Shown: in pieces, positions 53,141 through 62,391 of the stretch
Layout: every line of letters begins with the position of its first letter
How positions within the stretch are numbered: position 1 is the stretch's first letter
Assembly (NCBI RefSeq): GCF_056712565.1
Contig: NZ_JBWXXM010000002.1
DNA: 64,000 bases
Strand: one strand, 5' to 3'
Origin: a plasmid
Translations under genes and position numbers: made by a program
Notes under the pieces: model-generated
Database searches by the model: none
Seen by the model: only the letters and a program-made list of their open reading frames with translations
Told to the model about the DNA's origin: nothing

Positions 53141-53960
53141 GGCACTGTTGCAAAGTTAGCGATGAGGCAGCCTTTTGTCTTATTCAAAGGCCTTACATTT
53201 CAAAAACTCTGCTTACCAGGCGCATTTCGCCCAGGGGATCACCATAATAAAATGCTGAGGCCTGGCCTTTGCGTAGTGCACGCATCACCTCAATACCTTT
53301 GATGGTGGCGTAAGCCGTCTTCATGGATTTAAATCCCAGCGTGGCGCCGATTATCCGTTTCAGTTTGCCATGATCGCATTCAATCACGTTGTTCCGGTAC
53401 TTAATCTGTCGGTGTTCAACGTCAGACGGGCACCGGCCTTCGCGTTTGAGCAGAGCAAGCGCGCGACCATAGGCGGGCGCTTTATCCGTGTTGATGAATC
53501 GCGGGATCTGCCACTTCTTCACGTTGTTGAGGATTTTACCCAGAAACCGGTATGCAGCTTTGCTGTTACGACGGGAGGAGAGATAAAAATCGACAGTGCG
53601 GCCCCGGCTGTCGACGGCCCGGTACAGATACGCCCAGCGGCCATTGACCTTCACGTAGGTTTCATCCATGTGCCACGGGCAAAGATCGGAAGGGTTACGC
53701 CAGTACCAGCGCAGCCGTTTTTCCATTTCAGGCGCATAACGCTGAACCCAGCGGTAAATCGTGGAGTGATCGACATTCACTCCGCGTTCAGCCAGCATCT
53801 CCTGCAGCTCACGGTAACTGATGCCGTATTTGCAGTACCAGCGTACGGCCCACAGAATGATGTCACGCTGAAAATGCCGGCCTTTGAATGGGTTCATGTG
53901 CAGCTCCATCAGCAAAAGGGGATGATAAGTTTATCACCACCGACTATTTGCAACAGTGCC
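53141..53960 (-). mobile_element. IS26 copy 1 (820 bp)
   Basis: 14-bp terminal IRs GGCACTGTTGCAAA at both ends; flanking 8-mers differ (no TSD). Confidence 0.9.
53193..53897 (-). CDS. IS26 transposase
   Basis: 234 aa from [21 protein letters not shown]... Confidence 0.9.
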   Translation of the reverse strand: MNPFKGRHFQRDIILWAVRWYCKYGISYRELQEMLAERGVNVDHSTIYRWVQRYAPEMEKRLRWYWRNPSDLCPWHMDETYVKVNGRWAYLYRAVDSRGRTVDFYLSSRRNSKAAYRFLGKILNNVKKWQIPRFINTDKAPAYGRALALLKREGRCPSDVEHRQIKYRNNVIECDHGKLKRIIGATLGFKSMKTAYATIKGIEVMRALRKGQASAFYYGDPLGEMRLVSRVFEM

Positions 53961-54162
53961 ACAGAAAATTACCTGAACTGCGTCAACTCGGAGTCTGGCC
54001 GCGTGCGCGTGGAAGCAAAGCGGGCGAGCGAAGAATACGGGCGAGTGCTGCGGCGCTATCCGCTGAAACCCGGCGAGACGGTCGAGCGTCCGCAACGCGG
54101 GGAAGTCGTCAGCAGCTCCGGGGTTCTCCCCCCACTGGACCCAGGCGAATACTAAGCGCGGC

Positions 54163-54690
54163 GGTGTGTAATAGACGGAGCGCGAGGCGACTACTGGTCA
54201 GGGTTTGCGCAAGGCGGGTGTGTAATAGACGGGAGGGGATCGATCCGGCGATCCAGCCTGTGGATAGTCCGTCTATTACCCACCCGGTTCCGTCGTTTAC
54301 CCACCCAACCCCGTCTATTACCCACCGGAAACCGTCTATTACCCACCGAGGGGTTCTATAAGCAACTGATAATGAAGGTAAATTTTGCCTTCTGATTCCC
54401 TAAAACTCTTTAAAACAAAAAAAACATATATAAAACGTGTAGCCCTGGGGAAAACAGCCCGTGGAATTATGGACAATCCGGCAAGCCGGATACCTGCCTA
54501 ACCGCTTCGCGGTTCCCCATTGACAGGCCAGGGACAACCGCGAGCGGTTGCCCCCACCCTGCCAACAGGTCGGCAGTTGCCCACAATACCACCGGCTCAA
54601 GCAACAGGATTTTTTTATATTTTTGTTTTTAAAAGAAAAAAGCGGCCGTGCTCTAGTGGCATGGCCGCGTTACGTGGTCCTATCAGGGGC
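54163..54690. other. oriV-like module: iteron array, GC-rich palindromes, 32-bp AT-rich tract, further palindrome
   Basis: Four direct CCGTCTATTACCCACC-like 16-mers at exact 21-bp period (54269, 54290, 54311, 54332) plus two inverted copies (54163-54178, 54217-54232); AT tract 54610-54641; palindrome GCGGCCGTGCTCTAGTGGCATGGCCGC. Confidence 0.5.
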
Positions 54691-54770
54691 TTGTGGCTCT
54701 TGCGCCTCCTCGGATCGACACAAGTGCCGATCACTGCGGCGGGGCGCTCCTGGCTCAAGCTGAAAAGCGA

Positions 54771-55106
54771 TCAGTATCCGCACCAGTGGCGACGGCGTTC
54801 CCTCCACGCATTCGGGCCGGGCCTCCACTCAACGGCTAACCCCTCGGCCATGAGGGTTTGCCCCACGTCCCGCCCGTCGATCAGCAGGTGAACAAGGCGG
54901 CGGTCGTACTTGTCGGCTTGGCCGGAATCGACAACCTCGATGCGCTGAGCGTTGGCAACCAGTTCGCGGAGGCGTGCGGTTGCCTCGCGGCCCTTCGTCA
55001 GCTCGGCGTCGCACCTGGGCTTGTAGGTTTCCGGGGTGTCAATCGACAGCAGGCGCAAGCGTTGACCGTTGTATCGTAACCGTCCGGTGATTCCACCTTG
55101 AGCCAA
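54771..55106 (-). CDS. Thermonuclease (SNase-like) family protein, possibly N-terminally truncated
   Basis: ORF 111 aa with LLSIDTPE motif. Confidence 0.4.
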   Translation of the reverse strand: MAQGGITGRLRYNGQRLRLLSIDTPETYKPRCDAELTKGREATARLRELVANAQRIEVVDSGQADKYDRRLVHLLIDGRDVGQTLMAEGLAVEWRPGPNAWRERRRHWCGY

Positions 55107-55139
55107 ATCGCCTGCCGACCAAAAGGCTCGAAGCTTACC

Positions 55140-55228
55140 ACCCGGTCGATTCCGGTCAGATCCAGAAACGCCTCGTCGATGGAGTAGACATCCACTCTCG
55201 ATGCCAGAGCTTCCAGGGTCGTCATCAC
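55140..55228 (-). pseudogene. Short fragment of a umuC/mucB-type Y-family polymerase gene
   Basis: ...LEALASRVDVYSIDEAFLDLTGIDR matches the conserved UmuC SIDEAF region; homology ends abruptly. Confidence 0.4.
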
Positions 55229-55489
55229 CCGCCGGCTTATATCGCCATTTGTGTGGAATAGAGAATCAATTGGAACGGGGGCTTTGCTCGCCCCCCCTTG
55301 AACTTCTCATACCCAACCTGTTTGGCTATAGCTACTGAGGAGATCGCGGTGGCCCACCAAATCTTCCGGTCATCCTGTTCAATTACACCGCTAGCCGTAC
55401 CCAGGAGGTGCCGCAGCGCCTCCTGGAGGCAGAAAGGCGTCGAGCGTATAGGTTGCTGGGCATGCGCGGCGCAAGTTCATCAGAAAACT

Positions 55490-55900
55490 CAATCCAAGGG
55501 CAAGATCGGCCGAGCGGAGATGGCACTGACTCTTATCAACAAGCTCTACGGCATCGAGCGCGACATGGAAGAGGCGGGCGATGCCCAGCGATACCAGACG
55601 CGCCAGTCGCAAAGCCAGGCTTTCCTGGAGCAACTGAAAGCTAGGCTGGACAAAACCCCTCCCCAGGTCACGTCGTCAAAGTGCCTTGGGCAAGCAATCA
55701 ATTGCCTTGCGAGCAACTGGTTAAAGCTGATCCGCTACATCGAAAGGGGGACACCTGCCCATCGACAACAACCCTGCCGAGCGGGCGAGCCACCTTCTCA
55801 TGTACATATGACCAAAGCGTCGCCCGTCTCCTCCCGTTATGTCATGCCTACCCACGACGGAGTATTGACGGTCTCTGTGCGCCAGAGCATAGTTTTCCCG
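55490..55900 (+). pseudogene. Frameshifted fragment of an IS66-family transposase gene
   Basis: KLYGIERDMEEAG... and LPIDNNPAERA in two frames parallel the C-terminal region of the intact IS66 transposase. Confidence 0.5.
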
Positions 55901-55976
55901 AAGGGCGCTTAGGTACATATCTTCATGTGCTGTCCAGGCGCAGTTGCGTTTAGAGTACGTGTCCAATCAGTTTTAA

Positions 55977-56351
55977 ATGGGTGTGAACATGAGAGCAGAA
56001 ACTGAATCGCGGATTTTTTCGGTGGATGAATATGTTCGTCCGTCTAACGGCGAACCGATTCGTTCGGTTGTTCTGGAAACCAATGACTCTGTCGTCGTTG
56101 TTTGGCACGCCCACCCTGGGCAGGAAATAGCTTCCCATGTACATCCTCACGGCCAAGATACTTGGACGGTTATCTCAGGTGAAGCCGAATATCATCAAGG
56201 TAACGGCATAGTCACTCATCTTAAAGCTGGAGATATTGCGATCGCAAAACCTGGGCAGGTACATGGTGCAATGAACTCTGGCCCCGAACCTTTTATATTT
56301 GTTTCAGTGGTTGCGCCGGGCAATGCCGGTTTTGCGTTGGCTGAGAAATAG
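55977..56351 (+). CDS. Cupin-domain protein (124 aa)
   Basis: His-rich cupin-like motifs (HAHPGQEIASHVHPHGQD ... GQVHGAMN). Confidence 0.55.
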   Translation: MGVNMRAETESRIFSVDEYVRPSNGEPIRSVVLETNDSVVVVWHAHPGQEIASHVHPHGQDTWTVISGEAEYHQGNGIVTHLKAGDIAIAKPGQVHGAMNSGPEPFIFVSVVAPGNAGFALAEK

Positions 56352-56391
56352 GCGAAAGGCCTGAGAGGAAACTGATGAATACACGATTATT

Positions 56392-57211
56392 GGCACTGTT
56401 GCAAAGTTAGCGATGAGGCAGCCTTTTGTCTTATTCAAAGGCCTTACATTTCAAAAACTCTGCTTACCAGGCGCATTTCGCCCAGGGGATCACCATAATA
56501 AAATGCTGAGGCCTGGCCTTTGCGTAGTGCACGCATCACCTCAATACCTTTGATGGTGGCGTAAGCCGTCTTCATGGATTTAAATCCCAGCGTGGCGCCG
56601 ATTATCCGTTTCAGTTTGCCATGATCGCATTCAATCACGTTGTTCCGGTACTTAATCTGTCGGTGTTCAACGTCAGACGGGCACCGGCCTTCGCGTTTGA
56701 GCAGAGCAAGCGCGCGACCATAGGCGGGCGCTTTATCCGTGTTGATGAATCGCGGGATCTGCCACTTCTTCACGTTGTTGAGGATTTTACCCAGAAACCG
56801 GTATGCAGCTTTGCTGTTACGACGGGAGGAGAGATAAAAATCGACAGTGCGGCCCCGGCTGTCGACGGCCCGGTACAGATACGCCCAGCGGCCATTGACC
56901 TTCACGTAGGTTTCATCCATGTGCCACGGGCAAAGATCGGAAGGGTTACGCCAGTACCAGCGCAGCCGTTTTTCCATTTCAGGCGCATAACGCTGAACCC
57001 AGCGGTAAATCGTGGAGTGATCGACATTCACTCCGCGTTCAGCCAGCATCTCCTGCAGCTCACGGTAACTGATGCCGTATTTGCAGTACCAGCGTACGGC
57101 CCACAGAATGATGTCACGCTGAAAATGCCGGCCTTTGAATGGGTTCATGTGCAGCTCCATCAGCAAAAGGGGATGATAAGTTTATCACCACCGACTATTT
57201 GCAACAGTGCC
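56392..57211 (-). mobile_element. IS26 copy 2 (820 bp), same orientation as copy 1
   Basis: 14-bp IRs at both ends; flanking 8-mers differ. Confidence 0.9.
56444..57148 (-). CDS. IS26 transposase
   Basis: Protein identical to copy 1. Confidence 0.9.
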
Positions 57212-58167
57212 ATATTTCCAATAACCCATTAAGTCAATCCCTCTACACTGGGCGCACCGATGAGTTTGGCCAAATAGAGTTTGCTTTACGAATGATGCAA
57301 GCTGAAACAGGCGCCATAGTAGGTCGCATAGGTGATGCATCAAATCGGCTTAGCGAACACACCCGAGGCCTACTAAAGGATATTGAGTCAAGCAATGTAC
57401 TTACAGTTGAGCAGCAGGCAGAGACAGATCAAATAGCAACGGCAGTAAACCAAATGGTGGCAAGCATTCAAGAGGTTGCGAGCAATGCACAGCATGCTGC
57501 AGATGCGGCCGGAAGAGCAGACACTGAGACGGCATCTGGCCAGCGTCTGGTAGCCCACACAAGCCAGTCAATCACTGCCCTTGAAGGTGAAATTAGGCAA
57601 GCCACTCAGGTTATTCATGAGCTTGAAGGTCAAAGTAACGAGATATCAAAAGTTCTTGACGTTATACGAGGGATCGCCGAGCAAACGAATTTGTTGGCAC
57701 TCAACGCAGCAATTGAGGCCGCGCGTGCTGGTGAGCAGGGGCGTGGTTTTGCTGTTGTCGCCGATGAGGTTCGCAGTCTTGCTGCTCGCACACAGCAATC
57801 GACAACGGATATTCAAAGCATGATCAGCGCTCTACAAGAGCGAGCGCAATCCGCTGTTACAGTCATGGAGCAAAGTAGTCGGCAAGCGCACACGAGTGTA
57901 GCTCACGCAGAGGAAGCAGCTACAGCTCTTGATGGAATTGGCCAACGCGTTAACGAAATTACCGACATGAACGCGCAAATAGCGACTGCGGTCGAGCAGC
58001 AGGGAGCAGTAAGTGAAGACATAAACCGCAGTATTATCAATATACGCGATGCTGCTGATACCAATGTACAGACCGGGCAGAATAATTTGCAAAGTGCGAA
58101 ATCTGTCGCTCAGTTAACTAGCGCTCTGAGCGAACTGGCAAAACAGTTTTGGGAAAAACGAGGATAA
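57212..58167 (+). pseudogene. 5'-truncated methyl-accepting chemotaxis protein-like gene (Tn1721 orfI/mcp), cut by IS26
   Basis: C-terminal MCP signalling-domain sequence (...[35 protein letters not shown]...); reading frame starts inside IS26. Confidence 0.7.
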
Positions 58168-59857: not shown

Positions 59858-60475
59858 TCAGGGGGAAATCAGATTGTTGTCGACCCAGTACTTGTGCAAA
59901 CCTACCACCCAATTCCTGGAAATGGACGAAAGTTCATGCGCCAGTTCACGACAGCATTCAGGCGTAAAAATACGTATGGGTCCTGAAGTACCGATATCAA
60001 CAGACATGATAAACTCCAGAATGTTGCCATGGCATAGGTTGTTTCTCAGCCTGACAATTTCTGCTTCAGGTGTTCTCCCGGCTGCTACCTTAACCAACAT
60101 ATCCTGCTCGGCTGGAAATGAAAGTAATTCTACCGGCACCCCTTCCTGCTTGGCCTTTCTCAGTAAGGCATTACTCATTACGGAGATACCCTCCAAGTCC
60201 ACCAGCTCAGGAGCTGCATGCTGATCGTTAACTGTTGGTTTCAGCATCAGCGACTTCAACGTAACCATGAGTGATGTTTCAATCCCGTTCAGGAAGCTCG
60301 TACAGGCCGGTATCCATAGTTCGTGATGCAACGCCTCGGTTGCTTGTTTAAAGAACCAGTCAATCACGGGGACAGTGTGATAATCATAATAGTGATTTAT
60401 CTCGCTGAATCTTGACATATAAGCATCGTACTCAGCCTGGTCTTCAGGAGATAAAAAATTTGGTGGGAGGGGCAT
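59858..60475 (-). CDS. Hypothetical protein (205 aa)
   Basis: ORF only. Confidence 0.4.
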   Translation of the reverse strand: MPLPPNFLSPEDQAEYDAYMSRFSEINHYYDYHTVPVIDWFFKQATEALHHELWIPACTSFLNGIETSLMVTLKSLMLKPTVNDQHAAPELVDLEGISVMSNALLRKAKQEGVPVELLSFPAEQDMLVKVAAGRTPEAEIVRLRNNLCHGNILEFIMSVDIGTSGPIRIFTPECCRELAHELSSISRNWVVGLHKYWVDNNLISP

Positions 60476-60629
60476 CAGAATCCTTTCATCCTAGCTTGTA
60501 TACCTTCTTCGTAGGCCAGCTCGCCATTATCGGTAAAAGATGGTTTTTGGTGTTTGTGACAAAGCTTAATTTTTCGTCAGGCTCGATAGCGTTACCGGAG
60601 AGATTTGATCTTTTCTCTGTAACTCGTAA

Positions 60630-60649
60630 TACTGTTTATACATACAGTA
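60630..60649. promoter_or_regulatory. LexA (SOS) box upstream of umuD
   Basis: TACTGTTTATACATACAGTA = CTGT-N8-ACAG consensus, 20 bp upstream of the umuD ATG. Confidence 0.65.
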
Positions 60650-60668
60650 TGAGAATTCGAGTGTAGCT

Positions 60669-61103
60669 ATGTCTGTTATCCTTGAGCACATTAGCAACAA
60701 GCCTTACGAAATGGCACCTTTTTTCAGTGATTTACTGAGCTGTGGAGTGATGAGTCCGTGCGCCGGGCATGAAGATAATGAATTAAATTTGCATGAATAT
60801 GTAGTCCGTAACCGCCCCTCAACCTTCTTTGTCAGGGCGGCGGGCCTCAGTATGATCAATGCCGGTATCAATGATGGCGCTATTCTGGTTGTGGATCGGT
60901 CTTTAACGGCACGACACGGCTCTATCGTCGTTGCGCTGGTGGATGGAGAGTTCACGGTAAAGATCTTACACACGTATCCTGAGCTGCTTTTGATGCCTTC
61001 TAATCCAGCCTATAAGCCGATACGTGTAAATCCCGAATCCCTTGAGATATGGGGCATCGTCACCTTTGCACTGAATCAGTTTAGCCATGTACATGCACGT
61101 TGA
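60669..61103 (+). CDS. umuD: UmuD/MucA-like translesion polymerase accessory subunit (S24 peptidase fold)
   Basis: ORF 144 aa; Cys-Gly cleavage-site context (SDLLSCG), Ser (GLSM) and Lys (TVK) of LexA-type autoprotease. Confidence 0.8.
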   Translation: MSVILEHISNKPYEMAPFFSDLLSCGVMSPCAGHEDNELNLHEYVVRNRPSTFFVRAAGLSMINAGINDGAILVVDRSLTARHGSIVVALVDGEFTVKILHTYPELLLMPSNPAYKPIRVNPESLEIWGIVTFALNQFSHVHAR

Positions 61104-62346
61104 TATTAACGGGGCCTATGCGGCATTTGAGTGTGCGATGGATCCCAAGCTGGCAAAAAAGCCGCTCATCATAGCCAGCAATAACGATTCGTCCGTCATT
61201 GCAATGAATAAACTGGCTAAAAGCGTTGGTATTAAGCGTGGGACCCCAATTTTTAAGTGCAGGGATTTGATTCAGCAACACCAGATCGAAGTCCGGAGCT
61301 CTAACTTTACTTTGTATGAAGACTACTCAAATCGCTTCCATGAAACGCTGGAAAGCTTCGCGCCTCAATCGAGTCGATATAGCATAGATGAAAATTTCAT
61401 GTTATTGAAAAACATGAACAAGATAATAGATTATGAAGATTACGGCCGGTTGATCAGAAGTACACTTCTTCATAATCTGTCCCTTACCTGTGGTGTGGGG
61501 TGTTCAAGCACCAAAACCCTGGCTAAATTATGCACCTATGCGAGCAAACGATGGGCAGCTACAGGCGGGGTTGTAGTTTTGACTGATCAGGCCAGGATCA
61601 GGAAGCTCCTGGGCCTTATCAGTACCAGAGAAATATGGGGTATTGGTCAAAAGATCAGTGAACGCCTGTCGGCTTTCGGGATCATCACTGCCGGTGATTT
61701 TTATAATAGCGACGTTCGCTTTTTACGTAAAAGCTTTGGCGTTGAAATCGAGCGTACCTGGCGGGAACTGCATGGCGAACCATGTTTCCGGCTGCATGAA
61801 TCCCCTCCTGTCCGGCAACAGATTATCGTTTCCAGAAGTTTTGGTCAGCGCCTTAATGAGATAGGCAAGCTACATGAGGCAGTTTCATTTTTTACCGCCC
61901 GGGCGGCAGAGCAGCTGCGCAAGGATGGCTCGTGGACCCGTCAAATCACAGTCTTCATTCAGAGCAGCAATTATGCGCAAGGTGAAAACCGCTACAGCAA
62001 TTGTGGTATCGAGCCGCTTACCGCTACACAGGACACCCGCGATCTGGTTGATGCAGCCATGACCATCCTGAACCGCATTTACAAACCCGGGATAGCGTAT
62101 GCGAAAGCTGGGGTAATGCTCTCCGCTATGACTGACGGCACAGAGCAACTCAGCCTGTTTGATGAGCGCCCGGCCAGGCCTGGCAGTCAGGCACTGATGA
62201 AAGTTATGGACCGGTTCAATAAAGAAAAGCGCGGAGCTCTGTTTTTGCTGGGGGAAGGCATTCAACAGGATTTTCGTATGAAACAGGCCATGCTATCACC
62301 GAGATATACGACCCGCTGGGATGAATTACTCGTTGTAAAAGCGTAG
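61087..62346 (+). CDS. umuC: UmuC/MucB-like Y-family DNA polymerase
   Basis: ORF 419 aa overlapping umuD stop; N-terminus aligns with UmuC (VDINGAYAAFE); SIDE motif; C-terminal ...AMLSPRYTTRWDELLVVKA. Confidence 0.85.
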   Translation: MYMHVDINGAYAAFECAMDPKLAKKPLIIASNNDSSVIAMNKLAKSVGIKRGTPIFKCRDLIQQHQIEVRSSNFTLYEDYSNRFHETLESFAPQSSRYSIDENFMLLKNMNKIIDYEDYGRLIRSTLLHNLSLTCGVGCSSTKTLAKLCTYASKRWAATGGVVVLTDQARIRKLLGLISTREIWGIGQKISERLSAFGIITAGDFYNSDVRFLRKSFGVEIERTWRELHGEPCFRLHESPPVRQQIIVSRSFGQRLNEIGKLHEAVSFFTARAAEQLRKDGSWTRQITVFIQSSNYAQGENRYSNCGIEPLTATQDTRDLVDAAMTILNRIYKPGIAYAKAGVMLSAMTDGTEQLSLFDERPARPGSQALMKVMDRFNKEKRGALFLLGEGIQQDFRMKQAMLSPRYTTRWDELLVVKA

Positions 62347-62391
62347 CGGCCATGACCGGCATGGCCGTACTCATCAAAAGTGAAAGTAACT

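Follow-up and report, generated by a model that had tools for sequence, protein, structure and literature searches.

A probable LexA-controlled DNA polymerase V operon of the IncHI2 plasmid backbone and its place in a separate IncH-type clade

A 20-bp LexA (SOS) box standing just upstream of a umuD-like and a umuC-like gene raises two questions: whether the pair forms a functional, SOS-controlled polymerase V (Pol V) operon, and to which of the named Pol V families it belongs. We examined both for such a locus in a 64-kb stretch of plasmid DNA, referred to here as the window (64,000 nt in full). The initial annotation had read the locus as an SOS/LexA-regulated umuDC-like operon, and this reading is upheld by family models, functional residues, purifying selection and an operator/promoter footprint, with regulation and activity predicted from the sequence. 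We conclude that the locus is the ordinary Pol V (umuD-umuC) operon of the IncHI2 backbone, already known and annotated, and that it is probably functional.

The gene pair and its setting in the IncHI2 backbone

The umuD-like gene (positions 60669 to 61103, plus strand) encodes a 144-aa protein that Pfam, NCBIfam and alignment assign to the S24 self-cleaving Pol V subunits. It matches Pfam Peptidase_S24 (E 3.5e-24) and NF007621, the NCBIfam model of autoproteolytic Pol V subunits (128.8 bits; cutoff 110), and it aligns with full-length E. coli UmuD (PDB 8gmt; E 1.7e-31). From this alignment we predict a cleavage site at Cys25-Gly26 (60741 to 60746), corresponding to C24-G25 of E. coli UmuD, and a catalytic dyad of Ser61 (60849 to 60851) and Lys98 (60960 to 60962), corresponding to S60 and K97, with the catalytic serine in the context GLSM.

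The umuC-like gene (61087 to 62346, plus strand) encodes a 419-aa protein identified by Pfam, NCBIfam and individual residues as a Y-family polymerase catalytic subunit. Pfam recognizes IMS, IMS_C (the little-finger domain) and a C-terminal DUF4113, and the protein scores 464.7 bits with the NCBIfam UmuC model (NF002955; cutoff 431). It retains catalytic D6 and D101-E102, the steric-gate Y11 and a beta-clamp motif, QLSLF, at residues 354 to 358 (nucleotides 62146 to 62160), and its start at 61087 is supported by alignment with UmuC homologues (MFALxD versus MYMHVD). A search of the PDB by sequence returned no UmuC structure, the nearest solved relatives being DinB/Dpo4-type polymerases.

The umuD-like gene lies directly upstream of the umuC-like gene on the same strand, and the two open reading frames overlap, as first noted; the overlap measures 17 bp (61087 to 61103). 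Such a 17-bp overlap is confined to IncHI1 and IncHI2; where identity falls to 67-72%, the relatives join the two genes by TGAnATG, without overlap. Because the relatives have this arrangement, comparison marks the overlap as a derived state in which the ancestral umuD stop codon was lost, making UmuD longer by five residues. Between IncHI2 and IncHI1, umuD and umuC show pS of 0.72-0.77 and pN of 0.10-0.11, a pN/pS ratio of ~0.14. This ratio rules out a decaying operon or pseudogene, and the strong purifying selection on both genes points to functional genes with a specific activity predicted from their sequences.

The operon is widespread on plasmids of one kind. A 2.4-kb query against PLSDB retrieved 947 plasmids at ≥95% identity, 936 of them conjugative, from Escherichia, Enterobacter, Salmonella and Klebsiella and with sizes of 210-370 kb. 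The representative plasmid pSTM6-275 types as IncHI2A/MOBH/MPF_F; PGAP labels its gene pair umuD and umuC, and its multidrug-resistance (MDR) region ends in IS26 immediately upstream of umuD-umuC. The cluster to which the exact UmuC-like sequence belongs bears the name 'translesion error-prone DNA polymerase V subunit UmuC' and is represented on at least 1000 contigs. Synteny in IncHI1 and IncHI2 runs from a hypothetical gene through umuD-umuC to a convergent DsbA-family gene and a lipoprotein gene, and in the IncHI2 backbone the operon adjoins the transfer region (also PMC9599605). Relative to the prevailing IncHI2 sequence the window has two SNPs: T/C at 60627, 3 bp ahead of the LexA box, and A/G at 61056, corresponding to I130V in the UmuD-like protein.

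The locus has been encountered in earlier work under several descriptions. IncHI2 MDR regions have been placed 'between umuC and dcm' (PMC9599605), a mucB PCR marker was positive in 25 of 25 IncHI2 plasmids (PMC4855149), and mucA/mucB of R27 (IncHI1) were described as 'UV protection' genes on which neither temperature nor the conjugation regulator HtdA has an influence (PMC7366339). Two comparative papers on IncHI plasmids (10.1101/334409, PMC5390554) make no mention of the operon.

This setting bears on what the operon is for. Its main selected role might be plasmid maintenance or establishment, and not host mutagenesis, acting through the ssDNA/SOS signal of conjugative entry or through a DNA-damage checkpoint of the UmuD2C type; on that view LexA control would merely tie the operon to those events. 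Such a role would fit the conserved position of the operon in the backbone beside the transfer region (PMC9599605), the existence of separate LexA-boxed Pol V operons in many unrelated conjugative plasmid groups, and the listing of mucA/B under 'plasmid stabilization' genes in all 25 of 25 IncHI2 plasmids (PMC4855149). That last heading, however, is an annotation grouping with no test behind it, and the strong purifying selection acting on every catalytic residue of the polymerase speaks for a role in which polymerase activity is needed. We therefore regard maintenance or establishment as an improbable main role; the proposal concerns ultimate benefit rather than mechanism and is compatible with translesion synthesis.

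Relationship to other Pol V families

We compared the locus with E. coli umuDC, IncN mucAB, an IncK/Z impCAB-type operon, the IncL/M and IncHI1 operons, a second IncHI2 lineage and three other plasmid types. The UmuC-like protein is 99% identical to that of the second IncHI2 lineage (proteins of IncHI2 copies are 98.6-100% identical), and identity to IncHI1 is 84% for the UmuC-like and 81% for the UmuD-like protein. The corresponding values are 47% and 39% for E. coli UmuC and UmuD, 45% and 47% for MucB and MucA, 44% and 36% for the ImpB-type and ImpA-type proteins of IncK/Z, and 44% and 47% for the UmuC-like and UmuD-like proteins of IncL/M. Among themselves, Pol V proteins from outside the IncH group share 47-68% identity, or 50-68% if the divergent protein of an Enterobacter plasmid (rep_cluster_867) is left aside.

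A gap in identity surrounds the IncH-type proteins. A tblastn search of PLSDB left the range from 60% to 80% identity empty. When 5.8 billion proteins were searched, further members of the clade appeared at 67-78% identity, Lelliottia being one source, with contigs reaching 248 kb, and below these relatives none of the best 120 matches listed exceeded 51% identity to the UmuC-like protein. Outside the IncHI1 and IncHI2 clusters, the matches above 51% were small IncH-type clusters, none with more than 15 members, and no RumB-named protein occurred among the best 120 matches in that search. The rumAB operon of R391/SXT elements is presumably a mobile-element Pol V operon of like kind. Since the clusters above 51% are small and IncH-type, with none named RumB among the best 120 listed, RumB is very unlikely to be a close relative.

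In a neighbour-joining tree built from fast distances and rooted on DinB, the IncH-type clade received 98% bootstrap support. The Muc clade, comprising MucB, the IncL/M protein and a Rahnella protein, received 100% and excludes the IncH-type clade; the deeper branching of the IncH clade relative to other Pol V groups received 46-60%. The IncH-type clade combines UmuC identity of at least 67% to IncHI1/IncHI2, synteny with the DsbA-family and lipoprotein genes, and a common layout of TTGATC, 19 bp and LexA box. Of the alignments to the mucAB, impAB and rumAB families that the initial annotation had proposed as a check, the first two thus gave a clear result, with the operon in neither clade and on a separate IncH-type branch. 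The operon would work in the manner of umuDC, mucAB and impCAB, but by identity and tree position it is to be placed in its own clade outside the Muc and Imp clades.

The individual families differ from the IncHI2 operon in distinct ways. E. coli UmuD and UmuC share with it the Cys-Gly cleavage site, the Ser/Lys dyad, D6, Y11, D101 and E102, and the QLxLF clamp motif, but the E. coli genes are chromosomal and overlap by 1 bp instead of 17 bp, and their products have Phe10 and GDSM around the catalytic serine whereas the plasmid-borne IncHI2 genes encode Ala10 and GLSM. Position 10, beside the steric gate, is Ala throughout the IncH-type clade (GAYAAFE or SAYCAFE), and among Pol V homologues generally it is F, M, H or A. 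Because the position varies in this way, Ala10 appears to be a clade signature and no anomaly; the properties of the polymerase could differ from those of E. coli UmuC, which has Phe there. IncN mucAB (pKM101/R46 type, 'Pol RI') is likewise plasmid-borne and LexA-boxed with two overlapping genes (13 bp), but MucA has an Ala-Gly cleavage site in place of the Cys-Gly of the IncHI2 UmuD-like protein. The impCAB-type operons (IncI1/IncK/IncZ, TP110 type) are also plasmid-borne Pol V homologues with a strong and very similar LexA box, TACTGTATATACATACAGCA; in them the umuD homologue is separated from the box by a third gene, the DinI-like impC, which the IncHI2 operon lacks. Between its LexA box and the umuD-like gene there is no open reading frame, just 19 nt. 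The mucA/mucB genes of R27 (IncHI1) and umuDC of pSTM6-275 and pJXP9 (IncHI2), in contrast to these families, represent the same locus, with the same synteny, 17-bp overlap and promoter/operator layout.

It is very improbable, then, that the operon is a true member of the mucAB or impCAB family and has the pKM101 or TP110 operons as recent relatives. The names mucA and mucB are used in the literature for both IncHI1 and IncHI2, and mucA and mucB resemble the IncHI2 genes in overlapping (by 13 bp) and in the distance from box to ATG. MucB and MucA, at 45% and 47%, are however no nearer than E. coli UmuC at 47%, and the exclusion of the IncH-type clade (98%) by the Muc clade (100%) already refutes clade membership; the impCAB-type of IncK/Z begins with a DinI-like gene, and the IncHI2 operon has no dinI-like impC in the 19 nt from box to umuD. 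Although the name mucAB has been applied in the literature to IncH genes, mucAB and the IncH genes form separate, well-supported clades. Because the IncH operon forms its own lineage, the label 'mucAB' for IncH plasmids is, on this phylogeny, misleading.

The window also contains a second piece of Y-family coding sequence outside the operon. The initial annotation had placed a umuC-like fragment at 55140-55228 in an IS26-bounded mosaic and had concluded that two or more Y-family polymerase loci had been present on the replicon. The fragment is real and does lie inside an IS26 pair, but its span is wider: the remnant covers 43 codons at ~55115 to 55240 on the minus strand, and its translation, ISRRVMTTLEALASRVDVYSIDEAFLDLTGIDRVVSFEPFGRQ, aligns with UmuC residues ~80-122. 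Over that stretch it shares 39% protein identity with the resident UmuC, and with no intact plasmid UmuC does its identity exceed 67%; the remnant has 57.9% GC, the operon 48.3%. Two complete IS26 copies in the same orientation (53141 to 53960 and 56392 to 57211) enclose the 2.4-kb segment in which it lies, together with a thermonuclease gene, an IS66-like remnant and a cupin gene. The 621 bp containing the remnant are 100% identical in ~470 other plasmids, mostly Klebsiella IncF/IncR types, where some annotators label it 'SamB' or 'UmuC'. We considered whether it is a deleted copy of the resident umuC, and this is ruled out by the 39% identity, the differing GC content and the presence of an identical module elsewhere. 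Because of the low identity, the higher GC and the identity of the IS26 module in other plasmid types, these comparisons mark the remnant as a passenger that was already truncated when an IS26-bounded module brought it in, and that never formed a second operon on this replicon. The conclusion of two polymerase loci was accordingly an over-reading.

The LexA box and a putative promoter

The LexA box, TACTGTTTATACATACAGTA, occupies 60630 to 60649 on the plus strand and agrees with the LexA consensus TACTGTATATATATACAGTA at 18 of 20 positions, both mismatches being central. Its exact 20-mer occurs a single time in the 64-kb window and had no match in 100 dinucleotide-preserving shuffles. Sites with at most three mismatches to TACTGTATATATATACAGTA number two in the 64 kb, this box and one other, versus 0 expected, and CTGT-N8-ACAG is seen three times in the window versus 0.82 expected. 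We judged the strength of the box by mismatch counts against real boxes retrieved from other operons. From the end of the box to the umuD-like ATG (60669) there are 19 nt, so that the distance of 20 bp given earlier was correct to within one base. The chromosomal umuDC of E. coli, which has the same umuD-then-umuC order, likewise has a box with two mismatches to the consensus 19 nt before the ATG, and in each of eight other Pol V operons that we retrieved, the best LexA-like site stands 13-22 nt ahead of the first gene. Searches with Pfam, NCBIfam and PHROGs of the neighbouring 205-aa and 203-aa proteins and of the genes downstream of the second LexA box yielded nothing informative. The sole match in these neighbour-gene searches linked a 153-aa protein weakly (E 0.0028) to a PHROG whose function is unknown.

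Upstream of the box is a -35-like hexamer, TTGATC (60605 to 60610, plus strand), and the identical hexamer is found upstream of E. coli umuDC. After a 17-bp spacer follows a putative -10 hexamer, AATACT (60628 to 60633, plus strand), which covers the first 4 bp of the LexA box and has GATACT as its counterpart in the relatives. A sigma-70 scan of 60300-62600 called no promoter at the box, as TTGATC-17-AATACT scores 8/12 and the threshold was 9/12; despite these weak hexamers we accepted the candidate promoter on conservation alone. The Shine-Dalgarno sequence, GAGTG, is weak. The distance from TTGATC to the box is 17 bp in E. coli umuDC and 19 bp in the IncHI2 operon, and because of this difference the IncHI2 -10 element is likely shifted relative to that of E. 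coli.

The conservation in question is that of layout. TTGATC does not vary among IncHI2, IncHI1 and the three relatives of 67-72% identity, its spacing to the box is always exactly 19 bp in the IncH-type clade, across a spacer whose sequence has diverged, and the CTG-N10-CAG palindrome of the box is kept across the clade. The IncHI1 box is TACTGGTTAAATATCCAGTA, in which CTGT/ACAG has become CTGG/CCAG, a symmetric double change that preserves the palindrome. The intergenic DNA of IncHI1 and IncHI2 is conserved over the proximal ~75 bp and unalignable in its distal part. Because adjacent synonymous sites are saturated (pS 0.72-0.77), conservation of this non-coding arrangement is meaningful, and the combination of TTGATC, 19-bp spacer and CTG-N10-CAG makes a good footprint of what would be a LexA-occluded promoter. 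The most economical reading, we infer, is a TTGATC-17 bp-AATACT promoter occluded by LexA; at the level of sequence, the predicted SOS operator overlaps the putative promoter.

That the box is instead a fortuitous AT-rich palindrome, and the operon constitutive, otherwise controlled or decaying, might be argued from an operator role that is read from sequence and a promoter that the scan did not call, but is scarcely credible given that chance alone would yield no such site in 64 kb, that the palindrome arms and the TTGATC spacing are kept where synonymous sites are saturated, that a box stands at a like position in every other Pol V operon retrieved, and that pN/pS of ~0.14 excludes decay.

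Expected mechanism and meaning

Our preferred reading, which we hold with high confidence, is that the locus is a Pol V-type translesion/mutagenesis operon of the IncHI2 backbone under standard LexA/RecA control. LexA binding, inducibility, self-cleavage and polymerase or mutator activity are the properties predicted for it. In an undamaged cell, a dimer of host LexA would be expected on the 20-bp palindrome, which would overlap the -10 region and transcription start of the TTGATC/AATACT promoter, and umuD-umuC would be kept tightly off. DNA damage, or another stress that generates ssDNA, would lead to RecA filaments and hence to LexA self-cleavage and transcription of the operon. The UmuD-like protein would be expected to cut itself on RecA filaments at Cys25-Gly26 by means of the Ser61/Lys98 dyad, and a dimer of the shortened form together with the UmuC-like polymerase would copy past lesions at the cost of mutations. 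In the searchable literature we found no experiment on LexA binding, induction, UmuD-like cleavage or UV mutability for an IncH-type operon.

The operon is thus of the textbook type of SOS-controlled error-prone polymerase operon, annotated on ~950 sequenced IncHI2 plasmids, where it serves as a landmark of the backbone. The IncH-type lineage is carried on clinically important multidrug-resistance plasmids, and the conserved operator/promoter footprint offers a ready design for tests of the IncH-type operon. Features of the active sites specific to the IncH-type clade are Ala10 beside Tyr11, AAFE rather than ASCE, and GLSM at the UmuD-like serine. We raise as a speculative and rather unlikely idea that IncH-type Pol V is a deep, well-separated lineage with possibly distinctive fidelity, sugar discrimination or mutator strength, which could speed resistance evolution. 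If this were true, its position behind a tight SOS switch on the main IncHI2 plasmids carrying mcr-1, oqxAB or CTX-M could make resistance evolution measurably faster under SOS-inducing drugs such as fluoroquinolones.

Variation and neighbours of the umuDC operon

Using pSTM6-275, a representative IncHI2 plasmid, as the reference for the common IncHI2 sequence, we found two SNPs that separate the window copy from it, at positions 60627 and 61056. The first (T in the window vs C in pSTM6-275) lies 3 bp before the LexA box, inside a putative -10 region, and the second (A vs G) changes the UmuD-like residue 130 to Ile from Val. The exact UmuD variant of the window was found on only two contigs.

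Upstream of umuD, gene content differs among relatives. In one distant IncH-type relative (locus L013, 67% identity), the LexA box and umuD are immediately preceded by a gene for an SRAP-domain protein (SOS-response-associated peptidase, PF02586; 1263-1931 of the locus). In IncHI1 and IncHI2 the same slot is instead occupied by the gene for a divergent 205-aa protein (59858-60475 in the window) that had no match in family-model searches.

Downstream, umuC is followed by a convergent DsbA-family gene (62392-63201, minus strand) and a gene for a putative 203-aa lipoprotein (63308-63919, plus strand). IncHI1 and relatives at 67-72% identity keep both linked to umuC; in some cases one to three additional genes intervene. 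In E. coli K-12, a convergent dsbB comes after umuDC, a resemblance that is probably a coincidence.

In the locus of an IncL/M pOXA-48-type plasmid (L007, 1201-1228), the start that PGAP assigns to umuC seems to leave the gene about nine codons short; an in-frame ATG upstream gives MYALIDVNSMY.... Use of this ATG would regain the conserved N-terminal catalytic Asp and an overlap with umuD.

The IS26-bounded module and the MDR-region boundary

A thermonuclease-family ORF occupies 54771-55106 (minus strand) of the module between the two IS26 copies (53961-56391), which also carries the UmuC remnant (a Y-family polymerase fragment), an IS66-like transposase remnant (approximately 55298-55912) and, at 55977-56351, a cupin gene. 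The cupin gene is followed in other plasmids by a chlorite dismutase gene, whereas in the window the second IS26 ends the module before it. A plus-strand ORF (57139-58167) starts inside the end of this second IS26 and continues into what resembles, by eye, a methyl-accepting-chemotaxis-type signalling domain; the IS26 insertion therefore appears to have truncated a backbone gene. This insertion marks the boundary of the MDR region, with umuD approximately 3.5 kb downstream.

A second LexA-like box at 45 kb

Scanning the window for LexA boxes revealed a strong LexA-like site, TACTGTATGTATGTACAGCA (45006-45025), with three mismatches to the consensus. Besides the umuD box it is the sole site in 64 kb with three or fewer mismatches, where none was expected. 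The box lies in a 336-bp intergenic gap (context 44894-46128), approximately 205 bp from two downstream hypothetical genes encoding proteins of 153 aa (45230-45691) and 135 aa (45721-46128), neither of which had a match in Pfam or NCBIfam searches. More than 650 plasmids carry this region at 100% identity, and its sole annotation is 'hypothetical protein'. Together, the box and the two genes may constitute an unrecognised SOS-controlled unit on IncHI2.
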